From the NCBI GenBank assembly GCA_024275415.1, contig JAJRZD010000005.1, forward strand, positions 30,001-62,000: 32,000 bases of DNA, read 5' to 3'. The stretch comes from an archaeon (GTDB lineage: Archaea > Asgardarchaeota > Thorarchaeia > Thorarchaeales > Thorarchaeaceae). The notes under the pieces were generated by a model, which did no database searches, was not told where the DNA came from, and was given only the letters and a program-made list of their open reading frames with translations. This document shows, one piece after another, positions 699-23,671 of this stretch. Position 1 is the first letter of the stretch. Each line of letters opens with the position of its first letter. The position numbers were made by a program, and so were the translations under genes.

Positions 699-3600
699 CT
701 ACTCTGAAACATCATCTTTCTTGTCTTTCTTGAGAAGCGACTCCACCTCTGCAATGAATTCATCCTTCGGATCCACTCTCTCTTTTTGTTCGGTTTTCTT
801 CCTTTTCTTGGCAGGTTTTTTCTTTGCTGGTGCTTCGTCCGGCTCAGAGATAGTGTCTGCTTCAATCTCTTCGTCAAGAGTGGTCTCTTCTGATTCGGGG
901 ACTGTCGTAGCTAGTTCCATGTCATGAACATCGGTCAATCCCATGCCCTGTCGTTGTAATATCGTATGGATACCGATGGGTGTGATGATCCCTTTCTCAG
1001 CCATGCTCATGAAAATGTCCAGAACTTCCATTTCTGACTTGTTGAGCAGGTTGGCCACAGGAGCAAGATAGTCTTTCACCTCAAACTCGGTCTGGTCACC
1101 AAGAGAGGCTTGGACATACTTGAACACCCTCATCTCATCCTTCTCTCCCTTGACTGAAGGGTTAAGGGTGTGAGGAATCATCATTTGATAGTTCAGTACT
1201 GTGTAGAGATTTGACACGATCCATTCGGGGTTGAAACAATCGACCAGTCCAGTCCACTTGGCTAGGTCATTCTTGTACTGTGACTCGAAGAGTTCGACGA
1301 AGAACTGCAAGCGGTCTCGTACCTCCTGAGTGATGCTAGAGTCACCAATCAATATCGCAAGGCAGTTCTCTCCTACCCTACTGTTTAGAATGAGGCCCTG
1401 ATAGTTGATTTCCTCAAGAGTGCCCATCTCGCCATTCTGTTTTATCTCACCATACATACTTGTTATGGCAGAGATGAACCCACTGATGAGGTCTGCCTGT
1501 ATCCTCGACTCACCAAAGGGGTGGTAGAAAAGGCATGTCCCTCGACCTCTGTAGACTATCATAAAGTGTCGTAGTGATGCGAGGATGTTGAAGTAGTCAT
1601 ATTGTGCCTTTTTACTGGCGAACATCTTTGCGCGGGACGCCCTGCTTCGTTTGGCCAATAACACTCCTGCAATAAGTCCCCCTAGCATCAAATAGAACAG
1701 TGGGTTATAGAATAGTGATAGTATCTGTATCACCATAACGCCAACTGGGTCTGCTATCACTTCTCGTGTGAGTGTACTTGTGGACATTGGCCACAGGTCA
1801 CGCCTCCCGTGGTACTTTACTACGACGGAAACGGAGGTGGCAGTGCCTTCTTCTTCTGGGACGACATAGCTGAGTTCAGCGACCCCGTTACTGTCCGTGA
1901 CACGGCTCAACGTGACGGTCAGGTTGTGGTCGTCCTCGAAGGTGACAGTGATGACGAACTCCACGGTCTCGTCTTCTAGGGGCTGCTGGACCCCGTCGAG
2001 CAACGTCGCTCGGATGACGATGGGTGCGTCCCTGACCACGTTCCCCACATACTCTACCGACAACGTGGGTGTGCCCTTCTCGTCCACGGTCAGCACCGCA
2101 GATGCAGTCCCTTCGTCACAGCCCTCTGCCACAGCTGAGAATGCGACTACGTACACTCCTGGGGAGTTGGTGATGTGGTAGTCGAGGTAATAGGTCTCGT
2201 CACCCTCCGAATAGGACATCTGGTAGGAAACACCGTCGATCGTGACGTTGACTGTCCCCCAATAGACAGGGAGGTCTCTATCAGAGTCGGTGAAGGTCAC
2301 TACGAACGTGATGGTCTCGTTCTCGTACTCGGTGTAGGTACTCTCTGAGGTGAGGGAGGTATGCAGGGCACGTACAATGATACCTGTGTCTATGACTTGG
2401 GAAGAGTAGTTCTCCTTGGAGAGGGTGAAGGTCAACGTGTGCGTGTCCAGCGACAGCATGACCGCGCTTATCGTGAAGGTGAACCTCCCAGCCACGGGCT
2501 CGGAATACGTGAGTGCTGACCCAGACCATGAGAACGACTCCCCGCTCGGGTCTATTAGTCCGTCCGTGTGGTCGTTGACGTACTCCACAGTGATCTCGAC
2601 CGTCTGGTTGAGGTACAGCACATCCGGGATAGTGTTCTCTGTGAAGACTAACCTCGTGGGGATGGGTTCAACGGTGAGCGATACCTCGCTCTTGAAGACC
2701 ACGTACCCGTGAGTGTAAGCAGAGATGTTACCGTCCAGCGTGGTGACCCCAAGCTCAGAACCCGTGAAGTTGAGGGTGTACGTCCCGTTACCTAGATCCG
2801 TAAGGGGGTGCACAGCCGTGCTGGTGGTCAGGTTCACCTGCATCCCTGGGAGGTAGTTGGAGTCAGTGTCCTGCATGGTAAGCCTGAGCTCGACCCATCC
2901 ATCATAGTAGATGGTCTGTGTGTCGAACCCACCGATGACTGTAATGACCTGTCCAGAGGTGGGGGTCTCTATGACCTCCACGGTGACCGTGAACGTGCGG
3001 TTGATACTGCCGTACCGCCACGTCCATACCTCCATCTGGTATGTCCCCAGCCCGTCCTGCCCGTCGAAGAGGAACTGATAGACCCCTGCACCGACATGGG
3101 CAAGGACATAGTCCGTACTCATATAGGTGGCATTGACAAGGGCATCCGTGATAGGCTGTCCGAAAGAGTCTAACACTGTCACGTCCAACGTCTGCGTGTG
3201 GGTGTAGTATATCTGGGTGGTCGTCCATGATGGCGTCACAGAACCACTGTCTATGACGATATACAATGTGTCTACTTGCCTTCCGGTGTCGTACCCTGTC
3301 TTGTTAGCCATGACCGTGGCGTTCCACGTGCCCAGCCCTATCGCTGAGGCGTCAAGGGTCAGGTGCCAACGCTCGTCTGTTGCCGAGTAGGTGAAGTCGT
3401 ACACGGTCGTGGTGTTGACGTACAGCCTGACTGTTGCCCCAGGGATGGGTAAGCTGTCGAAGGTGTAGATGACAGAGATGTCCACGGTCTCGAAATAAGT
3501 CGCGTTCAGGTCTGATGGGGAGATCCAGTCCACGTAGAACGTGTTCGGTGCGATGGTGATGTTGAGACCTGAAGTGGTGTTTGTCTGTCCCACATAACCG

Positions 3601-6020
3601 AACGACCACGCACTAATAGATGCAGAGTATGTCCCGATACCAATGTCCTCCCCTGGGATAGTGATGTTCCATACCGTGCCCGTATAGGTCAGGTCGTAGG
3701 TCACACCGTCAATGGTCACGTTCACCACCGCAGAGGGCACGTCTCCCCCGCCATAGGCGTAGTCCACCTGGAGGTTCAGGGAGTCCGTGTATATTATCGT
3801 CACGTTGGATGGTGTCCATATGACAGTCAGTGGTGACGTTGGCTCCTTGTGGATGGTCAGGGCCTGTGTGTCGTCGAACCTCGGGACATGTTCGGCCCTC
3901 GATGCAGAGATGTTCAATGCGTGGGTGGCAAACCCGAGCCCGTCAGTCCCGTTGAACTGGACCCAGTAGAAGCCCGCAGGGTCGTACTGTAGTGTCCACG
4001 TGGTCGTGTAGTCAGTGACTGTGACGAGGGCGTTCTGGACGATGGTGCCGTTGGCATAGCTGTATTGCACCGTCAGGTTTGTGTTCCCGATATAGCTGAT
4101 GTTGTCAGTGTTGGACCATGCCACCACGAGGGGTAACGTGTCATAGGTCAGGGTCACGTCAATGGTGATGCTCTGGTTCTCGATAGCGGACCCGCTCCCG
4201 TTCACCCTCACTTGATAGGTTCCAGCAGAGTAGCCTGTTGTGGAGATAGTGGCTGTCCACGTGCCGTTGTTGAGGTCAGTCATCCCTGTCCATGTCCCTC
4301 CATCGAAGGAATACTGGACTATGACCCCTGCGTATGATCCGTCTATCCCCTTCGGTGTGAAGGTATCGTCAAAGTCCACCCTGACCTCGAAGGTGCTGTC
4401 AGTAAAGGCGTCTATTGTCGGGTCTGCCGGGGTCAACGTCGTGGGGTAGAAGACCACGAACTCCTTCGTCAAGTACCCAGCCTCCGTGCCGTTCGTCCAA
4501 TAGACCTCGATGCGGTAAGTCCCGTTGTTGGACGTGTCGAGGTCAATGTCCCATGTGTAGGACGTAGCACCGTTGGTGACGGACTGGTTTGCAGGGTTAT
4601 ATACCACGGATGTAGAGTCCCAGATGGTGAGGTTCGTAGTCCCAGACGTGGCATTGGTCAGCGTACCGTCTTGGATGGTGTTAGTGATGAGGAGGTTGTC
4701 AGTGATGCTCACCGTGTCCAGTGATATGATCCCTGTGACGTAGTTCGGTGCGGTGGACACCAGTGACCACGTGCCGTTGCCCATGCTCGACACCAAGACA
4801 GTGTTCCCATCAAGCAGGTATGTGGTGTGGTTGGTAGGGTCTGTCCCGTTGTATAGCCCAGATGTGGTCCAGTCGTCCTGCTTGGTGAGGTTGAGGTATC
4901 TGCTCTGGGACTGGCTTGGATATGACACAACAGTGGTCAGGTTCCACATCACGTCGCCCCCGCTCACGGGAACGTCCCACACTGACTGTGCAGGAACGTC
5001 TTTCCTGTACCACAACGTGAGGTTGTGGTATATCCCGACGGACTGGTTGGAGTCGAAGGCGATGGAGGAGATGTTGGTGGGGCTCGTCCACGAAACACTG
5101 TTCCCACTGAGAGGGGTGCCGTTCGCACGCAAAGAGACCTCAGCGGGCTGGAACACCATCGGGAGGTTCGAGGACTGGTCCCAGGGCACGTAGGTGTAGT
5201 TCAGCAAAGCCTCGTACGCTTGGTTCTGGCTCCATGCATTTAGCTCTCTCGTGTAGAACCTCGTTTGGAACGCCCCTGTGGAACTCTCGGAGTTCCAGAT
5301 TATCATCGGGAACGCTGGACCACTCTTCTGCAAGGCGTTCCCGTCGATCAGGGCATAGTAGGTGCTGTCCCCCGTGAGGTTAGCGAGGGCTGTTATCGTC
5401 GTCCATACACTGCTACCTTCGTACACTAGTGCCTGTGGGCTGGTGACGTTGGAGGAGGAGAGGGCGTAGTCAGAGCGGACGACGAAGTAGGCATCCCCAT
5501 AGAGGGACGGATTATAAGTCGGTGTGCTGTGGAAGACGGAGTAGTTCAACAGGAGCCCGTCGTGGGGCTGGGCGTAGAAGCCCTGTGCGAGCTGCGTCAC
5601 GTTGGAGAGTGTGTCTTCCCTGATGTAGAAGTTCTGGGTCTGGTCGATGCTCCCGACGACCTCCCTTTCCACGATGGCGGTGAGGTTGTCTATGGTCATG
5701 TCCGCCCTGTACAGCGTCCAGCCTGCCATGTGGAACTGGGTGAGGTCCACTGTCCCGTTGTGCTGTGCGGTGCTGGCGTAGCTGTTCGTGACGGTGAAGG
5801 TCTGCCCTGTCACTTCCCGGGAGAAGTGCTGGACAGCTGTGGATGTGTTACCTTGACCGGAGGCCGAGGAGATAGAATGCACCGAAATGGCGTCCATCTC
5901 GATCACTTCACCATTTGAATCATTGAATAACGACAGTTCTTTGGGTTTGTCTGCAAGAGGAGTGCTCAGAAGAATGAGAAGACACAGTGCTAGTACAGGC
6001 AAGATGGTTTTCTGGTTCAT
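699..6020 (-). CDS. Giant type-I membrane protein: signal peptide, N-terminal domain, about 9-10 Ig-like repeats, one TM helix, cytoplasmic longin domain, winged helix, acidic/basic tail
   Basis: The ORF track starts at 6095, but ATG at 6020 has GGAGG 10 nt upstream and begins a signal peptide (MNQKTILPVLALCLLILLSTPLA). Thr/Val/Tyr-rich ~100-aa beta repeats (e.g. TDLNNGTWTATI, TDLGNGTYTLNF) carry many NxS/T sequons. TM: LFYNPLFYLMLGGLIAGVLLA followed by KRSR. Longin motif: GTCLFYHPF...DLISGFISAITSMY. Confidence 0.9.
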   Translation of the reverse strand: MNQKTILPVLALCLLILLSTPLADKPKELSLFNDSNGEVIEMDAISVHSISSASGQGNTSTAVQHFSREVTGQTFTVTNSYASTAQHNGTVDLTQFHMAGWTLYRADMTIDNLTAIVEREVVGSIDQTQNFYIREDTLSNVTQLAQGFYAQPHDGLLLNYSVFHSTPTYNPSLYGDAYFVVRSDYALSSSNVTSPQALVYEGSSVWTTITALANLTGDSTYYALIDGNALQKSGPAFPMIIWNSESSTGAFQTRFYTRELNAWSQNQAYEALLNYTYVPWDQSSNLPMVFQPAEVSLRANGTPLSGNSVSWTSPTNISSIAFDSNQSVGIYHNLTLWYRKDVPAQSVWDVPVSGGDVMWNLTTVVSYPSQSQSRYLNLTKQDDWTTSGLYNGTDPTNHTTYLLDGNTVLVSSMGNGTWSLVSTAPNYVTGIISLDTVSITDNLLITNTIQDGTLTNATSGTTNLTIWDSTSVVYNPANQSVTNGATSYTWDIDLDTSNNGTYRIEVYWTNGTEAGYLTKEFVVFYPTTLTPADPTIDAFTDSTFEVRVDFDDTFTPKGIDGSYAGVIVQYSFDGGTWTGMTDLNNGTWTATISTTGYSAGTYQVRVNGSGSAIENQSITIDVTLTYDTLPLVVAWSNTDNISYIGNTNLTVQYSYANGTIVQNALVTVTDYTTTWTLQYDPAGFYWVQFNGTDGLGFATHALNISASRAEHVPRFDDTQALTIHKEPTSPLTVIWTPSNVTIIYTDSLNLQVDYAYGGGDVPSAVVNVTIDGVTYDLTYTGTVWNITIPGEDIGIGTYSASISAWSFGYVGQTNTTSGLNITIAPNTFYVDWISPSDLNATYFETVDISVIYTFDSLPIPGATVRLYVNTTTVYDFTYSATDERWHLTLDASAIGLGTWNATVMANKTGYDTGRQVDTLYIVIDSGSVTPSWTTTQIYYTHTQTLDVTVLDSFGQPITDALVNATYMSTDYVLAHVGAGVYQFLFDGQDGLGTYQMEVWTWRYGSINRTFTVTVEVIETPTSGQVITVIGGFDTQTIYYDGWVELRLTMQDTDSNYLPGMQVNLTTSTAVHPLTDLGNGTYTLNFTGSELGVTTLDGNISAYTHGYVVFKSEVSLTVEPIPTRLVFTENTIPDVLYLNQTVEITVEYVNDHTDGLIDPSGESFSWSGSALTYSEPVAGRFTFTISAVMLSLDTHTLTFTLSKENYSSQVIDTGIIVRALHTSLTSESTYTEYENETITFVVTFTDSDRDLPVYWGTVNVTIDGVSYQMSYSEGDETYYLDYHITNSPGVYVVAFSAVAEGCDEGTASAVLTVDEKGTPTLSVEYVGNVVRDAPIVIRATLLDGVQQPLEDETVEFVITVTFEDDHNLTVTLSRVTDSNGVAELSYVVPEEEGTATSVSVVVKYHGRRDLWPMSTSTLTREVIADPVGVMVIQILSLFYNPLFYLMLGGLIAGVLLAKRSRASRAKMFASKKAQYDYFNILASLRHFMIVYRGRGTCLFYHPFGESRIQADLISGFISAITSMYGEIKQNGEMGTLEEINYQGLILNSRVGENCLAILIGDSSITQEVRDRLQFFVELFESQYKNDLAKWTGLVDCFNPEWIVSNLYTVLNYQMMIPHTLNPSVKGEKDEMRVFKYVQASLGDQTEFEVKDYLAPVANLLNKSEMEVLDIFMSMAEKGIITPIGIHTILQRQGMGLTDVHDMELATTVPESEETTLDEEIEADTISEPDEAPAKKKPAKKRKKTEQKERVDPKDEFIAEVESLLKKDKKDDVSE

Positions 6021-6368
6021 AGGTTTGCTTCCTCCATTGTCACCTTTGTTAGTCCCCTGTATGTATCGTGATGGTTGTTCGTGTGTGAAGGGCATATACT
6101 AAATCTATCCAATGGACAAAAATCGCACATCACGATATTTCTTTTGCATTCTCTTATATCATTGTTTAGGGGGAAGGTTCTCATATGAATACCTCAAGTA
6201 GAGGGGTGCCATTGCGATGCTATAGAGCTGTGATGGCAACCGGTTTCCGTGGTTTATTACTCCAACCAGAATGGAAATTGAAGATATATACGTATCTCAA
6301 TTAGCATGCATTCGATTAATCGAGCTGTTGGGATGGACGACCATTCGGTTTTACATCTAGTTAGTGGT

Positions 6369-10388: not shown

Positions 10389-11657
10389 ATGCCGATCACA
10401 GACTTTCCAGTAGTGCTTCAGATCAAAGACCCGCTGCATGGTTATATTGGTGTTTCAGAGATTGAGAAGAAGATCATTGACCTGCGACTAACACAAAGGC
10501 TCCGAAATATCCGTTCTCCTGCAGGAACACATCTTGTATTCCCTGGTGTTGACACCTCGGTGATGGGACGAATGTTTGGTGTCATGTACGTGACTGAGGT
10601 CTTTGTGGAGCATCTTGACGGCTCGCTTGAGGAAGTGGAGAAAGCTCGGCTTGCATCAATGATGTTCATCTTGTCATTTGGCCCTTGGTCTAATGTGATG
10701 GAGGAATACCTGACCACGCGAGGTGATGACAGACGGCGGATGGCAACTCTCATTGCAGAAATAGGTCCTGTTGCCGACATCCTCAATGATAGCAGTTATT
10801 CTGTTACAGAGATAAAGAACCTTATCACAAAAGGAGTACCGATAAAGGGAATCAGAGTAGACCTTCTTACCACCCCTATCAATCCCGAGCTGGTCGACAA
10901 CCTCGAACGCGATGCCTATTTTGCAGGCGTTGAATACGCGCAACTTGAGTTCCGTCGCCTCTTCGATGCGACAAGGATCGCAAAGAACAAGATGGCATTC
11001 CAGAGGGGCGCAATGTACACTCTGGACTCGTACTTGAGCGCTAGTGGTAACATGTTTGATGCGGTGTATTATCACAAGACTGCCCGTGCTGCAGAATTGA
11101 TGTTGTTGAGGATGCTAGATGAGGCTGGCTCCAATTTCATCCCATTCCCCGGAAATGACCTAGAGGGTTTCATGTTTTGTGATGACCTGACATCACACGA
11201 CATCCTACTCTCGGTACAACCAGAAGACCCGGAGAACATGCGGACTGCCCAACGTCTATTCATCGACTACAGAAAACGAAACCTGATAAAGCTTGCAAGT
11301 GCTAGGACTATCGCAAATGAGGAGTTCTTAGCGGGATTGAAGACAGCAGACGGGCTATTCTCTGTGGAGAACGAGATAGCAGAGATGGCGGGCATAGACC
11401 CTCAGAACGTCTTCATTGACTACCCTGACCGTCTTTCTGTCGCGTACTATCCGGGCAGGCATAACATGGACGATTTGGTGTTTTATGAACGTGGGTCGGG
11501 AGGATACGAGTTCTGGCCAGTTGATGATCTAAGCGAGATGGCCCGCGCATTCAAACGAAAACTGAAGACCATCAGAGTCTATACGACTCGTGGATATCGC
11601 AGCAAGGTTCGGAAAGTTGCGGACGAGTTTCTAAAGAATGTTGATGAGCCCATGTAG
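10389..11657 (+). CDS. HD-superfamily dNTP triphosphohydrolase (COG1078/SAMHD1-like) homolog with degenerate active site
   Basis: Scaffold motifs IKDPLHGYI, QRLRNI, LVFPG, DNLERDAYFAG and VYYHKTARAAE are present. The H...HD...D metal ligands are replaced (see findings). Confidence 0.85.
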   Translation: MPITDFPVVLQIKDPLHGYIGVSEIEKKIIDLRLTQRLRNIRSPAGTHLVFPGVDTSVMGRMFGVMYVTEVFVEHLDGSLEEVEKARLASMMFILSFGPWSNVMEEYLTTRGDDRRRMATLIAEIGPVADILNDSSYSVTEIKNLITKGVPIKGIRVDLLTTPINPELVDNLERDAYFAGVEYAQLEFRRLFDATRIAKNKMAFQRGAMYTLDSYLSASGNMFDAVYYHKTARAAELMLLRMLDEAGSNFIPFPGNDLEGFMFCDDLTSHDILLSVQPEDPENMRTAQRLFIDYRKRNLIKLASARTIANEEFLAGLKTADGLFSVENEIAEMAGIDPQNVFIDYPDRLSVAYYPGRHNMDDLVFYERGSGGYEFWPVDDLSEMARAFKRKLKTIRVYTTRGYRSKVRKVADEFLKNVDEPM

Positions 11658-11726
11658 ACACATTGATTTCTCAGAGCCACAGAGTCTTTAAGCAATGTTT
11701 TGTTACCTCGAAGTGAGGTAAGTGCG

Positions 11727-12182
11727 TTGGGAATTGATTCAACAGTTGGACAGATTCAGAGAGACCCGAATTTCGGGATGATTCTTATTGGTGCATTGCT
11801 ATGGCTTGCAGGGTTATATCCTATACCTCTCGTGGCACCATTCCTCTTGACAATTGGCTTTGGCGTTGTTTGTACATCAGCCGCCATTACATCCTTGCAG
11901 CGCCCTACCGAGAATGCAGCCTTTGGATTGCTCCTCGGAGGTATTATTCAGGTCATAGGATACTATCTTCTTTACATCCCCCTTATCGGATGGCTCATCG
12001 CTCCGTTTCCCATAGTCCTTGGGAGTGTTCTCATCATCTATTTCGCTATCCCCTTGGCGATTAAGACAGGGAAAGTCCCGTTCGTCGAGGAGATACAAAA
12101 GAAGATACGAAAAGATAAGGATGGAATCGAGCCTGTTTCTGATTCAGAAGATACATCCGACCAAGACAATCCTAGTTCGTGA
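11727..12182 (+). CDS. Small membrane protein, about 4 TM helices, acidic C-tail
   Basis: Four hydrophobic segments. The track start is TTG 11700; TTG 11727 has GAGGT 7 nt upstream and is preferred. Confidence 0.7.
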   Translation: MGIDSTVGQIQRDPNFGMILIGALLWLAGLYPIPLVAPFLLTIGFGVVCTSAAITSLQRPTENAAFGLLLGGIIQVIGYYLLYIPLIGWLIAPFPIVLGSVLIIYFAIPLAIKTGKVPFVEEIQKKIRKDKDGIEPVSDSEDTSDQDNPSS

Positions 12183-12269: not shown

Positions 12270-14546
12270 TTGTTCTCTTGTGGCAAATGTGGGCTCCCCC
12301 TGTTCATCCGTTCAGCATCTCTAAAAGATATGATCCTCAATCTGGATGTGCAGTGTCTGCAGGGACACAAGGGTGTACGCCGAATTGCAGAGCACCAAGT
12401 GGAGGAAGTTGCCCAAGAGATCTTTCGACGGCTCTACACTTGCATCGATTGTGGGTCTAACATGATGATGGTGGGAACTGAAACGCACAAGGGGTCGACC
12501 GAGGGGCTTTTCATCTGTCCAAACCATGGAGCGGAACGGAGAGAGTTCCCTGCACAATTCCTCGGTCATGTCACTCTTGCTGGCTCAGAGGTCAACCCTA
12601 ACACTTCCATCCGAAACTCGTTCAGATGTGATGAGTGCGGTCTAATCTATTCCATCACGGACATCCAAGAGAAAGGAGGCATTCTTGAAGCATCCGTCAA
12701 GTGCGCGAATGGACACAAGGACACGAAATACCTAGCGCCTCACATGGATGAAGGGCTATTGAAATCAATATTGCAACGCATCGCCCACTGCGACAGATGT
12801 GGACTCCCAGGACACCTTTCTGGAGTCGAAGAGCGCAAGAGAAACAGTCGGTTGCATGTGGTCTGCCCCACTCATGGTGTGACAAAGAAACAGGTTCCAA
12901 CCGAGTTCATTGGGAAGATACAGGAATCTGTTGCTGAGATACCTGAAGATGCAGTGATCAGGGCCATGCTGACCTCTTCCAAATGTGAGCGACCACTGGT
13001 GATACGCGAGATCGAGGAGGCACCAAATGGTTACAAGTTCAAGACCCTCTGTCCAGGCCATGGCAATACAGGTGATTTCGTGACACCTGTGGACTGGAGG
13101 GAACGGAATCGCAGGCTCATCACACAGTCCACATTGTCATGCAACGAGTGTGGCTTGCAGACCCAGATACTGGACGCTCGCAAGAAAAAGAAAGGGACTC
13201 AGTTCAGAGTAGTCTGTCCTACTCACGGAGTTATGTTAAGGAATGCACCACACGATGTGTACAGCATCATTGAGGAAACCTCTCATCATCTCGACAAGCT
13301 TCCGTCGCTGATACGGAGTTTGACCTGTGAGAAATGTGGCATCCCGTTGAGCCTCCGTGATGTCGAAACGAAGCGAGGGATTGTCGAATTCGACATGGAC
13401 TGTCGAAATGGGCATAAGACAAAGCGTTTTCTTGCCCCTGATATCAATCAGGCCACACTTGTCGGACTCTACAAGAATCTCTACAAATGTCCTGAATGTT
13501 ATGATCCTGTAGATCTGGTCTATACAAAACCCGAAGGACGTGAAACCCGAGTGGTGCTTCTCTGTCCTCTTCACGGGAAGCAGGTATTGGATGTCCCGGA
13601 TGATCACGCTGAAGCAATGCAGCTTGCCTATGATGAGATAAAGGCGGATCGCCTGAAGCCGCGGATAGAAGCCGTTCATGAGGAACCAGAAGCGGAGTTA
13701 GAGTCATCATCGGAATCTTTGGAGTCCTCATCCAAGGAAGTGCATATAGCACGAGGCTGTGAAGTGGTTGGTGGGAAGTTCGATTTCAAGGTGAAAGTGA
13801 CCAACACTACTGGTTTTGTTATCACGAACGTGACAGTGAGTATCGTTGCCTATCCACAGGACTGCATGGAACTGGGTGGTGAGAGTTCCAAGACAATCTC
13901 GAGGATTGAAGTAGGCGGATTTCGCAGTCCGCTTTTCACATTCTATCCCACTAAAGATTGCGTCCAGGGGAAGGTAGTTGCTACCGTTTCCTATATCGAT
14001 TTCAGAGATCAGCTTCATACGTTGCAGGTCGAACCTTATCTGATACGCTCTGTCTGTGACCTGTTGAAACCGACCAAAGCCACCTCTCAACAGTTCGACC
14101 TCATCCTTGGAAACCTGACCAAGGCTGGTGAGGAACAGATACTAGAGTGGAACCCTCGGATACTCTTCACCAAGGCCGAGAAGCTGCTTCCCGTAAAGAA
14201 TTTCCATATTATCGATACGGACGAGAAGGTTCTCTCTGGTCACTTTATTGGAACCATTCGTGGGTTCGCTGAGGGGAAATACACAGGCAAGAAGGTTGCG
14301 GTCATATTCCTCATCTCTGGCCCCGAGAACGGACGTACAGCCACAGTCAAGATGGAGGCACTGGGTGAGGACATCGCGATGCTTCCGACAACCATTGACG
14401 AACTCTCAGAAACAATTGACTCGTGGATTTGCCTGCGATGTGGAGCCCCGTTGGATCCGGAGCAGGTCGAGGATCTAGGATTGCGAAAACCAATCCGGTG
14501 CAAGTATTGTTCTCATACTCTGACTTTGGGATTATATCTCATGTGA
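12270..14546 (+). CDS. Eight tandem CxxC-x21-C-x2/3-H zinc fingers + acidic/Ser linker + coatomer/adaptin-type appendage (beta-sandwich + platform) + C-terminal C4 zinc ribbon
   Basis: TTG start with GGTGA 6 nt upstream and an in-frame stop just before it. Repeats were counted by hand. Appendage similarity is detailed in findings. The C-terminus is CLRCGAPL...IRCKYCS. Confidence 0.88.
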   Translation: MFSCGKCGLPLFIRSASLKDMILNLDVQCLQGHKGVRRIAEHQVEEVAQEIFRRLYTCIDCGSNMMMVGTETHKGSTEGLFICPNHGAERREFPAQFLGHVTLAGSEVNPNTSIRNSFRCDECGLIYSITDIQEKGGILEASVKCANGHKDTKYLAPHMDEGLLKSILQRIAHCDRCGLPGHLSGVEERKRNSRLHVVCPTHGVTKKQVPTEFIGKIQESVAEIPEDAVIRAMLTSSKCERPLVIREIEEAPNGYKFKTLCPGHGNTGDFVTPVDWRERNRRLITQSTLSCNECGLQTQILDARKKKKGTQFRVVCPTHGVMLRNAPHDVYSIIEETSHHLDKLPSLIRSLTCEKCGIPLSLRDVETKRGIVEFDMDCRNGHKTKRFLAPDINQATLVGLYKNLYKCPECYDPVDLVYTKPEGRETRVVLLCPLHGKQVLDVPDDHAEAMQLAYDEIKADRLKPRIEAVHEEPEAELESSSESLESSSKEVHIARGCEVVGGKFDFKVKVTNTTGFVITNVTVSIVAYPQDCMELGGESSKTISRIEVGGFRSPLFTFYPTKDCVQGKVVATVSYIDFRDQLHTLQVEPYLIRSVCDLLKPTKATSQQFDLILGNLTKAGEEQILEWNPRILFTKAEKLLPVKNFHIIDTDEKVLSGHFIGTIRGFAEGKYTGKKVAVIFLISGPENGRTATVKMEALGEDIAMLPTTIDELSETIDSWICLRCGAPLDPEQVEDLGLRKPIRCKYCSHTLTLGLYLM

Positions 14547-22477: not shown

Positions 22478-23671
22478 TCACATTGTAAGCTGGTTCCACT
22501 GTACATTCTGAGATATCTTCGGATACACCTGCTTGAGCTCGTGCATGACCTTTGAAATAATCGTGTTCGTAGGCTCTGAGCCAATCAGAATGCTTATTCT
22601 TTTCGTGATGAACTGCATCAAAGCTCTTAAACCATCACTGAGGATATCAGGCAGGATCTTGCCTTTAGTGGCAGCACTGGAAAGGGAACTACGAACCACC
22701 ACATCAATGTCCTCTTCGAGATCGACGAAGGAAAGCCAAGTGTATGTGTCCATCAATGCGTTACGTGACTCCACGAATATGTTCCGTGTCATCTTGTTCC
22801 CTAGCAGTCTTGCGCAGTTGGACAGGATCTCCTGTAGCACACTCGAATGTTGTACCAGAGTGGCTTGTGCCTCCGATACCCTCTCTACCGCATCCTTTTC
22901 CGCAAGCATGGCTATCTCGTCAAGGAACCTTCGCAGGTCACGGGTCTTGACTTTCTCAGCAGCTATCGCGAGGGGTGTTTCTCCATCGAGTTCACTGAGC
23001 GCAGCCGTGGTTTCTGGAGAAACCCCATCGATGACCTTCTCAGTCCTCTCTAAAGAGGTTGTTTGATAGATGTCCTCTGGTCTGACCGGATTGGTAAGCA
23101 CCACTGCCTTTTCCCAAATTGCGTTTGCAACAATGTTCATTGCGACCTCCAAAGGTATCTCAAGGAACTCAGCTGCTTCTCTCACAGAGATAGTTTCCGG
23201 AAGGAGCTTCAGGAATGAGTCCACTTCTGGGTTTTTTACATAAAGATCCCAATTCAGCTTCTGGCGAATAACACTGTCGGGCTTTACCTGGTCTAAGAGT
23301 AGCTCATCGATTACATGTTTCTCGTATCTGCTGTAGACTGCCAAGTCAATGTCGACCCAGCGTAGCAGATTGAATTGTTCCTCGAAGATCTCAATAAGTC
23401 GCCTAAGCTTGTCTCGTAGGATTTCATCATCCATTGACGCGCTGAGCGCACCGATCGTCCATTCTCCAAACTCCACCAGGATCTTGTAGTCCGTGCCTTC
23501 GAACGCCCGCGCTCGTGATGAAATCGATTGGTTCGCCTCGTCGAAGAACGAGGTCATGGCACTGATGAATGAGGAGATGAGGTCTGGGTCGAAGATTGCG
23601 TCAGTGAAATCCTTATGATACATGCATAGACCTGTTTCTCGCTTGATTATGTACAGGCTCTTGATGTTCAT
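22478..23671 (-). CDS. Soluble longin-domain protein with two winged-helix units and a helical C-domain (NPRL2-like architecture)
   Basis: N-terminal longin motif: SLYIIKRETGLCMYHKDF...DPDLISSFISAMTSFF. wHTH units: SVREAAEFLEIPLEVAMNIVANAIWEKAV and LDGETPLAIAAEK...LAEKDAV. Confidence 0.85.
   Translation of the reverse strand: MNIKSLYIIKRETGLCMYHKDFTDAIFDPDLISSFISAMTSFFDEANQSISSRARAFEGTDYKILVEFGEWTIGALSASMDDEILRDKLRRLIEIFEEQFNLLRWVDIDLAVYSRYEKHVIDELLLDQVKPDSVIRQKLNWDLYVKNPEVDSFLKLLPETISVREAAEFLEIPLEVAMNIVANAIWEKAVVLTNPVRPEDIYQTTSLERTEKVIDGVSPETTAALSELDGETPLAIAAEKVKTRDLRRFLDEIAMLAEKDAVERVSEAQATLVQHSSVLQEILSNCARLLGNKMTRNIFVESRNALMDTYTWLSFVDLEEDIDVVVRSSLSSAATKGKILPDILSDGLRALMQFITKRISILIGSEPTNTIISKVMHELKQVYPKISQNVQWNQLTM

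Follow-up and report, generated by a model that had tools for sequence, protein, structure and literature searches.

A zinc-ribbon array joined to a predicted adaptin/COPI-type ear in a soluble protein of Thorarchaeia, and the wider Asgard family of ear-plus-ribbon proteins

The appendages, or ears, of COPI beta- and gamma-COP, AP-2 alpha and beta2, AP-3 delta and beta, AP-4, TPLATE and BBS9 share a two-part layout in which an Ig-like beta-sandwich is followed by an alpha/beta platform. In the adaptins and COPI this unit sits at the C-terminus behind a flexible hinge, and the trunk of the heterotetrameric adaptors is an alpha-solenoid (adaptin N). Related domains have been reported from Asgard archaea, as the original prediction for the gene described here had noted. 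Eme et al. 2023 (PMC10307638) recorded that Asgard genomes encode alpha-adaptin C-terminal and beta2-appendage domains that were "not fused to each other". Makarova et al. 2024 (10.1101/2024.02.06.579148) described Ig-like plus TBP-like "adaptin appendage regions" that archaeal ESCRT loci encode; one of these regions has a Zn ribbon, and another connects to a GOLD ectodomain through a membrane linker. The same study described appendage regions in Asgard Vps28-C/longin proteins, proposed that such regions act as interaction hubs, and reported Asgard ESCRT proteins with three Zn ribbons.

The protein analyzed here resembles those of Makarova et al. 2024 in its Ig-like plus TBP-like region and its Zn ribbon, and many of its relatives resemble them in carrying a membrane linker. 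Those proteins, however, were defined by ESCRT neighborhoods or through Vps28-C, longin or steadiness-box domains fused to them, none of which occurs in the present protein, and a Zn-ribbon trunk of eight repeats is not described in the main text of that paper. The domains of Eme et al. 2023 were found by sequence families, whereas our protein matches none of those Pfam families and has a different architecture, restricted to one order. Appendage domains go unmentioned in a 2026 structural survey in Nat Microbiol (PMC12962969) and in a 2026 structural-clustering preprint (PMC13734099). We found no paper describing a protein that combines a Zn-ribbon array with an ear, in agreement with the earlier statement that such a fusion was not known. 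Archaeal and Asgard ears are already published; the present contribution lies in the architecture and in how broad the family is.

The window, by which we mean the whole 32,000-nucleotide stretch of DNA analyzed, carries the gene as a single ORF of 758 aa (Table 1). The encoded protein runs from a rigid array of eight Zn-ribbon repeats through an acidic Ser-rich hinge into a domain of ~230 aa and ends in a C4 Zn ribbon. It is a soluble protein with no membrane helix predicted, and a Pfam search with the whole 758-aa protein gave nothing significant and detected no catalytic family. The database gene call is 738 aa long, begins at Met21 and loses the first CxxC knuckle. Because the starts of the orthologues coincide with the TTG at 12270 and the orthologues keep this first knuckle, the database call is probably truncated at its N-terminus.

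Table 1. Coordinates of the array-ear gene and its parts within the window.
Feature	Window position	Strand	Basis
Whole gene, TTG start	12270..14546	+	ORF list, translation; start backed by orthologue alignment keeping first Zn knuckle
Eight Zn-ribbon repeats, aa 1-462	12270..13655	+	Motif positions, ligand conservation, AF2 model
Repeat 5, degenerate, aa 237-289	12978-13136	+	Two ligands lost; only C239 and C261 left
Acidic Ser-rich flexible hinge, aa ~463-488	13656..13733	+	Low pLDDT, charge, poor conservation in orthologue alignment
Ear subdomain 1, predicted Ig-like beta-sandwich, aa 489-597	13734..14060	+	AF2 strands, GAE/Ig-type matches
Ear subdomain 2, predicted alpha/beta platform, aa 598-718	14061..14423	+	AF2, AP-4 beta platform match
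C4 Zn ribbon (CxxC at aa 721 and 744) and stop codon	14424..14546	+	Motifs, alignment, AF2

The N-terminal array consists of eight copies of a repeat ~54-64 aa long. The eight zinc fingers read from the DNA in the original prediction hold as a count of repeats but not of intact sites, one repeat being degenerate and seven retaining a site of the form CxxC-x21-22-C-x2-3-H, with the first Cys at aa 4, 58, 120, 174, 291, 353 and 407. Across 28 orthologues of 40-70% identity, each of the four ligands in the seven intact sites is either unchanged throughout or conserved in 90% or more, so the repeated Zn sites are not due to chance. An AF2 model of the array built from the 28-sequence alignment (pLDDT 90.2, pTM 0.76) shows each unit as a knuckle, a three-stranded sheet and a helix, so that a beta-beta-beta-alpha pattern is repeated eight times; the model thus bears out the claim that a Zn array, and not an alpha-solenoid, forms the N-terminal part. 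No convincing match to a known fold was obtained for the array, the best VIA-align Z being 5.4 and Foldseek TM values lying at ~0.1. The Foldseek rows are spurious propeller-like 3Di matches from which no fold was assigned, and scores of at most 0.80 in an ESM Atlas feature search were treated as noise. A predicted complex of array and ear scored 0.25, below the mark of 0.32, and was counted neither for nor against any reading.

Many Zn ribbons bind nucleic acids, and the protein could in principle be a regulator whose array binds DNA or RNA while the ear serves only as a dimerization or partner-binding end. We consider this quite improbable: single repeats do bear a weak resemblance to the NrdR Zn ribbon (Z 5.1-5.2) and homologues are annotated as "RPC12/RpoP", "Elf1" or "topoisomerase Zn-ribbon", but the array is near neutral (pI 7.8, net charge +2 over 455 aa), its structural matches are at noise level with none at Z of 8 or more, and the ear module occurs mainly on membrane proteins. 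The ear is also better conserved than the array. Among closer orthologues it is 71-80% identical, as against 40-70% for the array, and by this measure of sequence identity it is the more constrained part of the protein.

Between the two lies the acidic Ser-rich linker that had been noted from the sequence, with a net charge of −6 over aa ~456-488 and a pLDDT below 50 at aa 476-486. At the other end, the C-terminal domain is capped by a feature absent from the original prediction, a C4 Zn ribbon at aa 721-747 (CxxC…CxxC) whose Cys residues are invariant at 4/4 positions in 37 aligned sequences and which is modeled at a pLDDT of ~92.

The ear was modeled with AF2 from aa 487-758 using an alignment of 37 homologous C-termini, giving a pLDDT of 90.7 and a pTM of 0.75. 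In the model an all-beta sandwich (model residues 5-108) is followed by an alpha/beta platform (113-230) and then by the ribbon. The most conserved motif of the family, SVCDLLxP, lies at the junction of sandwich and platform, where the platform begins, and the platform itself contains a near-invariant Trp-Asn pair (W141-N142 of the alignment, aa 627-628). In a Foldseek search of the PDB, the top 15 matches were all appendages (AP-2 alpha, AP-2 beta2, gamma-COP and COPI coat chains), with E values from 9e-11 to 5e-7 over 224-251 columns. VIA-align, run against 48,161 PDB representatives, returned the alpha-adaptin ear (1w80, Z 17.2, 211 aligned residues), the beta2 ear (3h1z, Z 14.6, 207 aligned residues), the gamma-COP ear (1r4x, Z 14.3, 212 aligned residues) and BBS9 (6vbu_9, Z 12.0, 189 aligned residues), as well as the AP-4 beta platform alone (2mj7, Z 13.3, rmsd 2.4, 112 aligned residues). 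In the AlphaFold DB Swiss-Prot set, the best 30 matches were all AP-3 delta/beta, beta-COP, TPLATE, gamma-COP, AP-1 beta or AP-4 epsilon, with TM values of 0.59-0.67 and rmsd of 3.5-4.3 for beta-COP. Over the PDB and Swiss-Prot searches together, TM was 0.63-0.69 with beta-COP and a COPI-leaf chain. A cluster of eukaryotic alpha-adaptin ears was matched in the ESM Atlas (TM 0.64/0.72, rmsd 3.1 over 209 aa).

From this agreement of model and fold searches, aa 489-718 are predicted with high confidence to adopt the sandwich-plus-platform fold of adaptin/COPI appendages, as had been proposed from peptide blocks correctly placed at nt ~13735-14420. The likeness is one of predicted structure only. 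Identity to eukaryotic ears in the structural matches is 10-16%, and no sequence similarity to adaptin or COPI ears was detected: none of the Pfam ear families (Alpha_adaptinC2, Alpha_adaptin_C, B2-adapt-app_C and the beta-/gamma-COP appendage families) matched the 758-aa protein at E<=10, a profile of the 37 C-termini found no ear among PDB sequences, and a sequence search of the PDB likewise gave nothing relevant. When 132 relatives were searched, no ear family appeared among the 25 Pfam families listed of the 58 matched at E<=1. GAE_BBS1 was a weak but recurrent Pfam match in 17 of these 132 family members (best E 0.0027), alongside other weak, sub-threshold matches to Zn-ribbon, TRAPPC13_C and TRAP_beta. 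The ligand-binding aromatic motif FxxxW of the beta/gamma-COP platform (PMC2262067) is not visible in the platform sequence. The protein differs from the eukaryotic ears in the C4 ribbon added after the platform and in conserved Cys residues that, together with the SVCDLLxP junction, are specific to the archaeal family.

Low identity of this order leaves room for a resemblance of fold without shared function, in which an Ig-like sandwich on a helix-grip domain would be a structural or oligomerization module, for instance one that clusters membrane proteins. Each subdomain fold is common on its own: many Ig domains match at Z 9-12, a KA1 domain matches at Z 9.7, and the sandwich alone draws GAE and Ig-type matches at Z ~10-12.7, the best Ig-only match being 9fyo (Z 12.7, ~100 aligned residues). 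Tandem arrays of ear paralogues and double-ear proteins would also suit self-association. We nevertheless regard this explanation as unlikely, since the matches that take in both subdomains, with order and packing preserved, come solely from appendage families and score above single-domain matches (Z 14.3-17.2 for the whole ear, with the platform recognized in its own right by 2mj7). The outcomes named beforehand as counting against the original prediction, a model lacking the platform or best matches to generic Ig folds alone, did not occur. The genomic context of a HEAT-fused paralogue, described below, is moreover coat-like.

The ear-plus-ribbon module forms a large Asgard family. An exhaustive profile search with the alignment of 37 C-termini recovered 651 representative clusters at E<=0.001, 164 of them at E<=1e-30. 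Family proteins range from 240 to 2867 aa and carry the ear at or near the C-terminus; the long members bear exported-type domains, including SBBP propellers, NosD-type beta-helices, PKD domains, family-5 solute-binding domains and TSP3 repeats. Members that carry a name stem from MAGs of Thorarchaeota and Lokiarchaeota, two groups in which many surface proteins and multipass membrane proteins end in this module. In 132 representatives with a full ear, a hydrophobic helix lies upstream of the ear in 98, within 150 aa of it in 89, and the C4 ribbon follows the ear in 91. From these counts, the usual form of the family is an ectodomain or multipass membrane part, followed by a linker and then by ear and ribbon, and in ~70% of representatives ear and ribbon form a tail behind a membrane helix. 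Judging by the Zn ribbon and the topology, this membrane-anchored tail presumably lies on the cytoplasmic side.

Distribution was assessed in a sample of 201 genomes of the phylum Asgardarchaeota, 92 of which matched the ear profile. Matches occurred in 41/43 genomes of the family to which our genome belongs (1-8 copies each), in 39/40 genomes of a second family at weaker scores and in a few others; several of the remaining families searched gave no match to the profile. The genome analyzed here encodes a second ear protein on another contig, in which a multipass membrane region and a coiled coil precede the ear, and a helical region and a last, hydrophobic helix come after it. Soluble relatives also exist, among them proteins with two ear-ribbon modules in tandem and proteins of ~405-420 aa in which HEAT repeats precede the ear. 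A WD40 propeller protein adjoins the HEAT-ear gene in 3/3 loci checked and a Ras-like GTPase in 2/3.

The survey of architecture and neighbors that had been proposed with the original prediction places the eight-repeat array in 32 of the 43 sampled genomes of its own family, mostly in one or two copies each, and in the one genome sampled from a sister family. In another Asgard family, free-standing proteins of ~165 aa match about two array repeats. Gene order is preserved in 30/30 related loci longer than 12 kb, running from an HD-associated protein through the array-ear gene to a UbiX-type flavoprotein and DUF2070, and continuing with PadR and two ABC transporters where the locus reaches that far; in the window, the neighbors are PFOR, the HD-associated protein, UbiX, DUF2070, PadR and the ABC transporters. 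The 758-aa gene is a soluble form of the ear family, conserved with synteny across Thorarchaeia. In many genomes it is followed by a tandem paralogue, absent in this window, that shares the eight-repeat array at 34% identity over 454 aa; beyond the array, this paralogue has the ribbon but just the latter half of the platform (hhalign probability 92.5%). A four-helix membrane protein of 160 aa is encoded directly upstream in about two thirds of the loci. It was considered as a split-off anchor and dropped as a partner, since phmmer gave no match between it and the membrane parts of fused paralogues and about one in three related loci lacks its gene.

None of these neighbors gives a trafficking context. 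No mu/sigma subunit genes lie near the array-ear gene, and neither the window nor the syntenic block of the 30 loci showed Vps4, ESCRT-III or ubiquitin-system genes. The latter observation bears on the possibility that the protein is an ESCRT- or ubiquitin-linked cargo adaptor, with Zn ribbons that bind ubiquitin-like modifiers or ESCRT subunits in the manner of the Vps36 NZF and an ear that recruits factors, making it an analogue of ESCRT-0. Makarova et al. 2024 (10.1101/2024.02.06.579148) proposed such a role for other Asgard ear proteins, and the ties they reported between archaeal appendages, one with a Zn ribbon, and ESCRT loci, together with the Asgard ESCRT proteins bearing three Zn ribbons, speak in its favor. 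Pfam also places Vps36-NZF-N in the 758-aa protein (E 0.23) and zf_UBZ in a relative, but both matches are far below threshold and the array repeat, a C2-C-H ribbon that includes a helix, is not an NZF. With ESCRT and ubiquitin-system genes missing from window and synteny block alike, we think this role doubtful for the present protein.

We lean, with modest confidence, toward a different role, in which the 758-aa protein would be a cytoplasmic docking scaffold or adaptor within a network of membrane-anchored ear proteins. This functional reading draws on the predicted ear fold, the trunk-hinge-ear layout, the constraint on the ear, the membrane-anchored family and its soluble relatives, the conservation of the gene and the lack of a match to any enzyme family. 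The ear would dock partner proteins on a flexible tether, as eukaryotic ears do, the Zn-ribbon rod would provide a second, multivalent binding or spacing element, and the soluble protein would share its interaction network with the membrane-anchored ear proteins. Counting against the docking scaffold are the missing sequence-level link to eukaryotic ears and neighbors devoid of trafficking context.

A bolder extension, which we put forward as speculative and improbable as it stands, is that the family makes up a membrane-proximal sorting network. Surface receptors would carry cytoplasmic ears, and soluble ear proteins, namely the Zn-ribbon rod, the double-ear proteins and the HEAT-ear protein beside its WD40 propeller and Ras-like GTPase, would be primitive coat adaptors, clustering or sorting these receptors. 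The ear would then predate the solenoid trunk as an organizer of coats.

Appendage domains are the interaction hubs of two kinds of coat, clathrin-adaptor and COPI, whose origin is an open problem in eukaryogenesis. Within one Asgard class, the two-part ear, predicted with confidence, is a widely reused module that spans 651 clusters and mostly forms the tail of membrane proteins, behind the membrane helix. The same ear is present on a conserved soluble Zn-ribbon protein, the putative scaffold described here, and on a HEAT-repeat protein whose gene neighbors encode a propeller and a small GTPase, and these proteins are candidates for testing whether archaeal ears bind partners as coat ears do.

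The type of ear carried by the main gene is also found behind N-terminal HEAT repeats, in proteins of about 405 to 420 aa encoded at 3 loci of other Thorarchaeota genomes. The ear matches an ESM-Atlas cluster of this kind at a TM score of 0.82 (rmsd 1.5 over 234 aa), and 80% of the members of that cluster contain HEAT_2. The HEAT-ear gene is adjoined by a WD40 beta-propeller gene at all 3 loci (L085, L086, and L087), and a Ras/Rab-like small GTPase gene occupies the opposite flank at L085 and L087; the GTPase ORF at L086 is a candidate only. Taken together, solenoid-ear protein, propeller, and GTPase make up a coat-like set, but the genome that contains the window (92.9% complete) yielded no such set.

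Ears also occur in other architectures. The second ear protein of the window's own genome, to which no Pfam family was matched, has a multipass membrane N-terminus, followed by a coiled-coil region, a Ser-rich linker, and an ear that lacks the C4 ribbon. Beyond the ear the chain is helical and then closes with a hydrophobic helix. In the double-ear proteins, a helical N-terminus precedes 2 complete ear-plus-C4-ribbon modules in tandem, an arrangement defined by 2 matched stretches in the ear profile search together with the positions of the motifs.

Features discussed in the text, with positions in the window or in related loci (L0xx)
Feature	Location	Strand	Length	Remarks
1798-aa protein	window 699-6095	-	1798 aa	weak Ig-like Pfam matches only
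HD-associated protein	window 10389-11657	+	422 aa	Pfam
Predicted four-helix membrane protein	window 11700-12182	+	160 aa	
397-aa protein	window 22478-23671	-	397 aa	no Pfam family
Tandem paralogue	L042:8895-10757			directly 3' of main gene's orthologue
HEAT-ear locus	L085:2369-5441			other Thorarchaeota genome
HEAT-ear locus	L086:3652-6243			other Thorarchaeota genome
HEAT-ear locus	L087:3360-6458			other Thorarchaeota genome
Second ear protein, own genome	L002:61-2607, contig C38		848 aa	
Double-ear proteins	P0002-P0031 (proteins)		~690-805 aa	soluble; other Thorarchaeota MAGs

At roughly two thirds of the related loci, the main gene's orthologue is directly followed by a tandem paralogue, whose Zn array likewise has eight repeats and is 34% identical over 454 aa. 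The C-terminus of the paralogue lacks the sandwich and retains just the latter half of the platform, together with the C4 ribbon. This paralogue is not present in the window, where 7 nt separate the stop of the main gene from the start of the next. Around 2 of the Zn-array repeats are matched by free-standing proteins of 155 to 195 aa from another Asgard family (genomes G011, G022, G043, and others), which align at profile positions ~230-338 with E values of ~1e-11 to 1e-13. The repeat unit may thus have relatives beyond Thorarchaeia in these proteins.

The predicted four-helix membrane protein is encoded 88 nt upstream of the main gene on the same strand, and some two thirds of the related loci have it. 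Its conserved juxtamembrane motif, G-K/E-V/I-P-F/I-V-E/K-E/D, is followed by a tail that is first Lys-rich and then acidic. Comparison with the membrane parts of the fused ear proteins, in which the ear forms the tail behind a membrane helix, revealed no homology.

Elsewhere in the window, the sole family match of the 422-aa protein is to the "HD associated region," with no match to the HD domain itself; the protein may be a homologue of dNTPases in which the metal ligands are no longer present. The 1798-aa protein may be a surface receptor whose cytoplasmic tail is of longin/winged-helix type, and the 397-aa protein may be an NPRL2-like longin protein. If true, these last 2 candidate readings would add more trafficking-like parts to the window.
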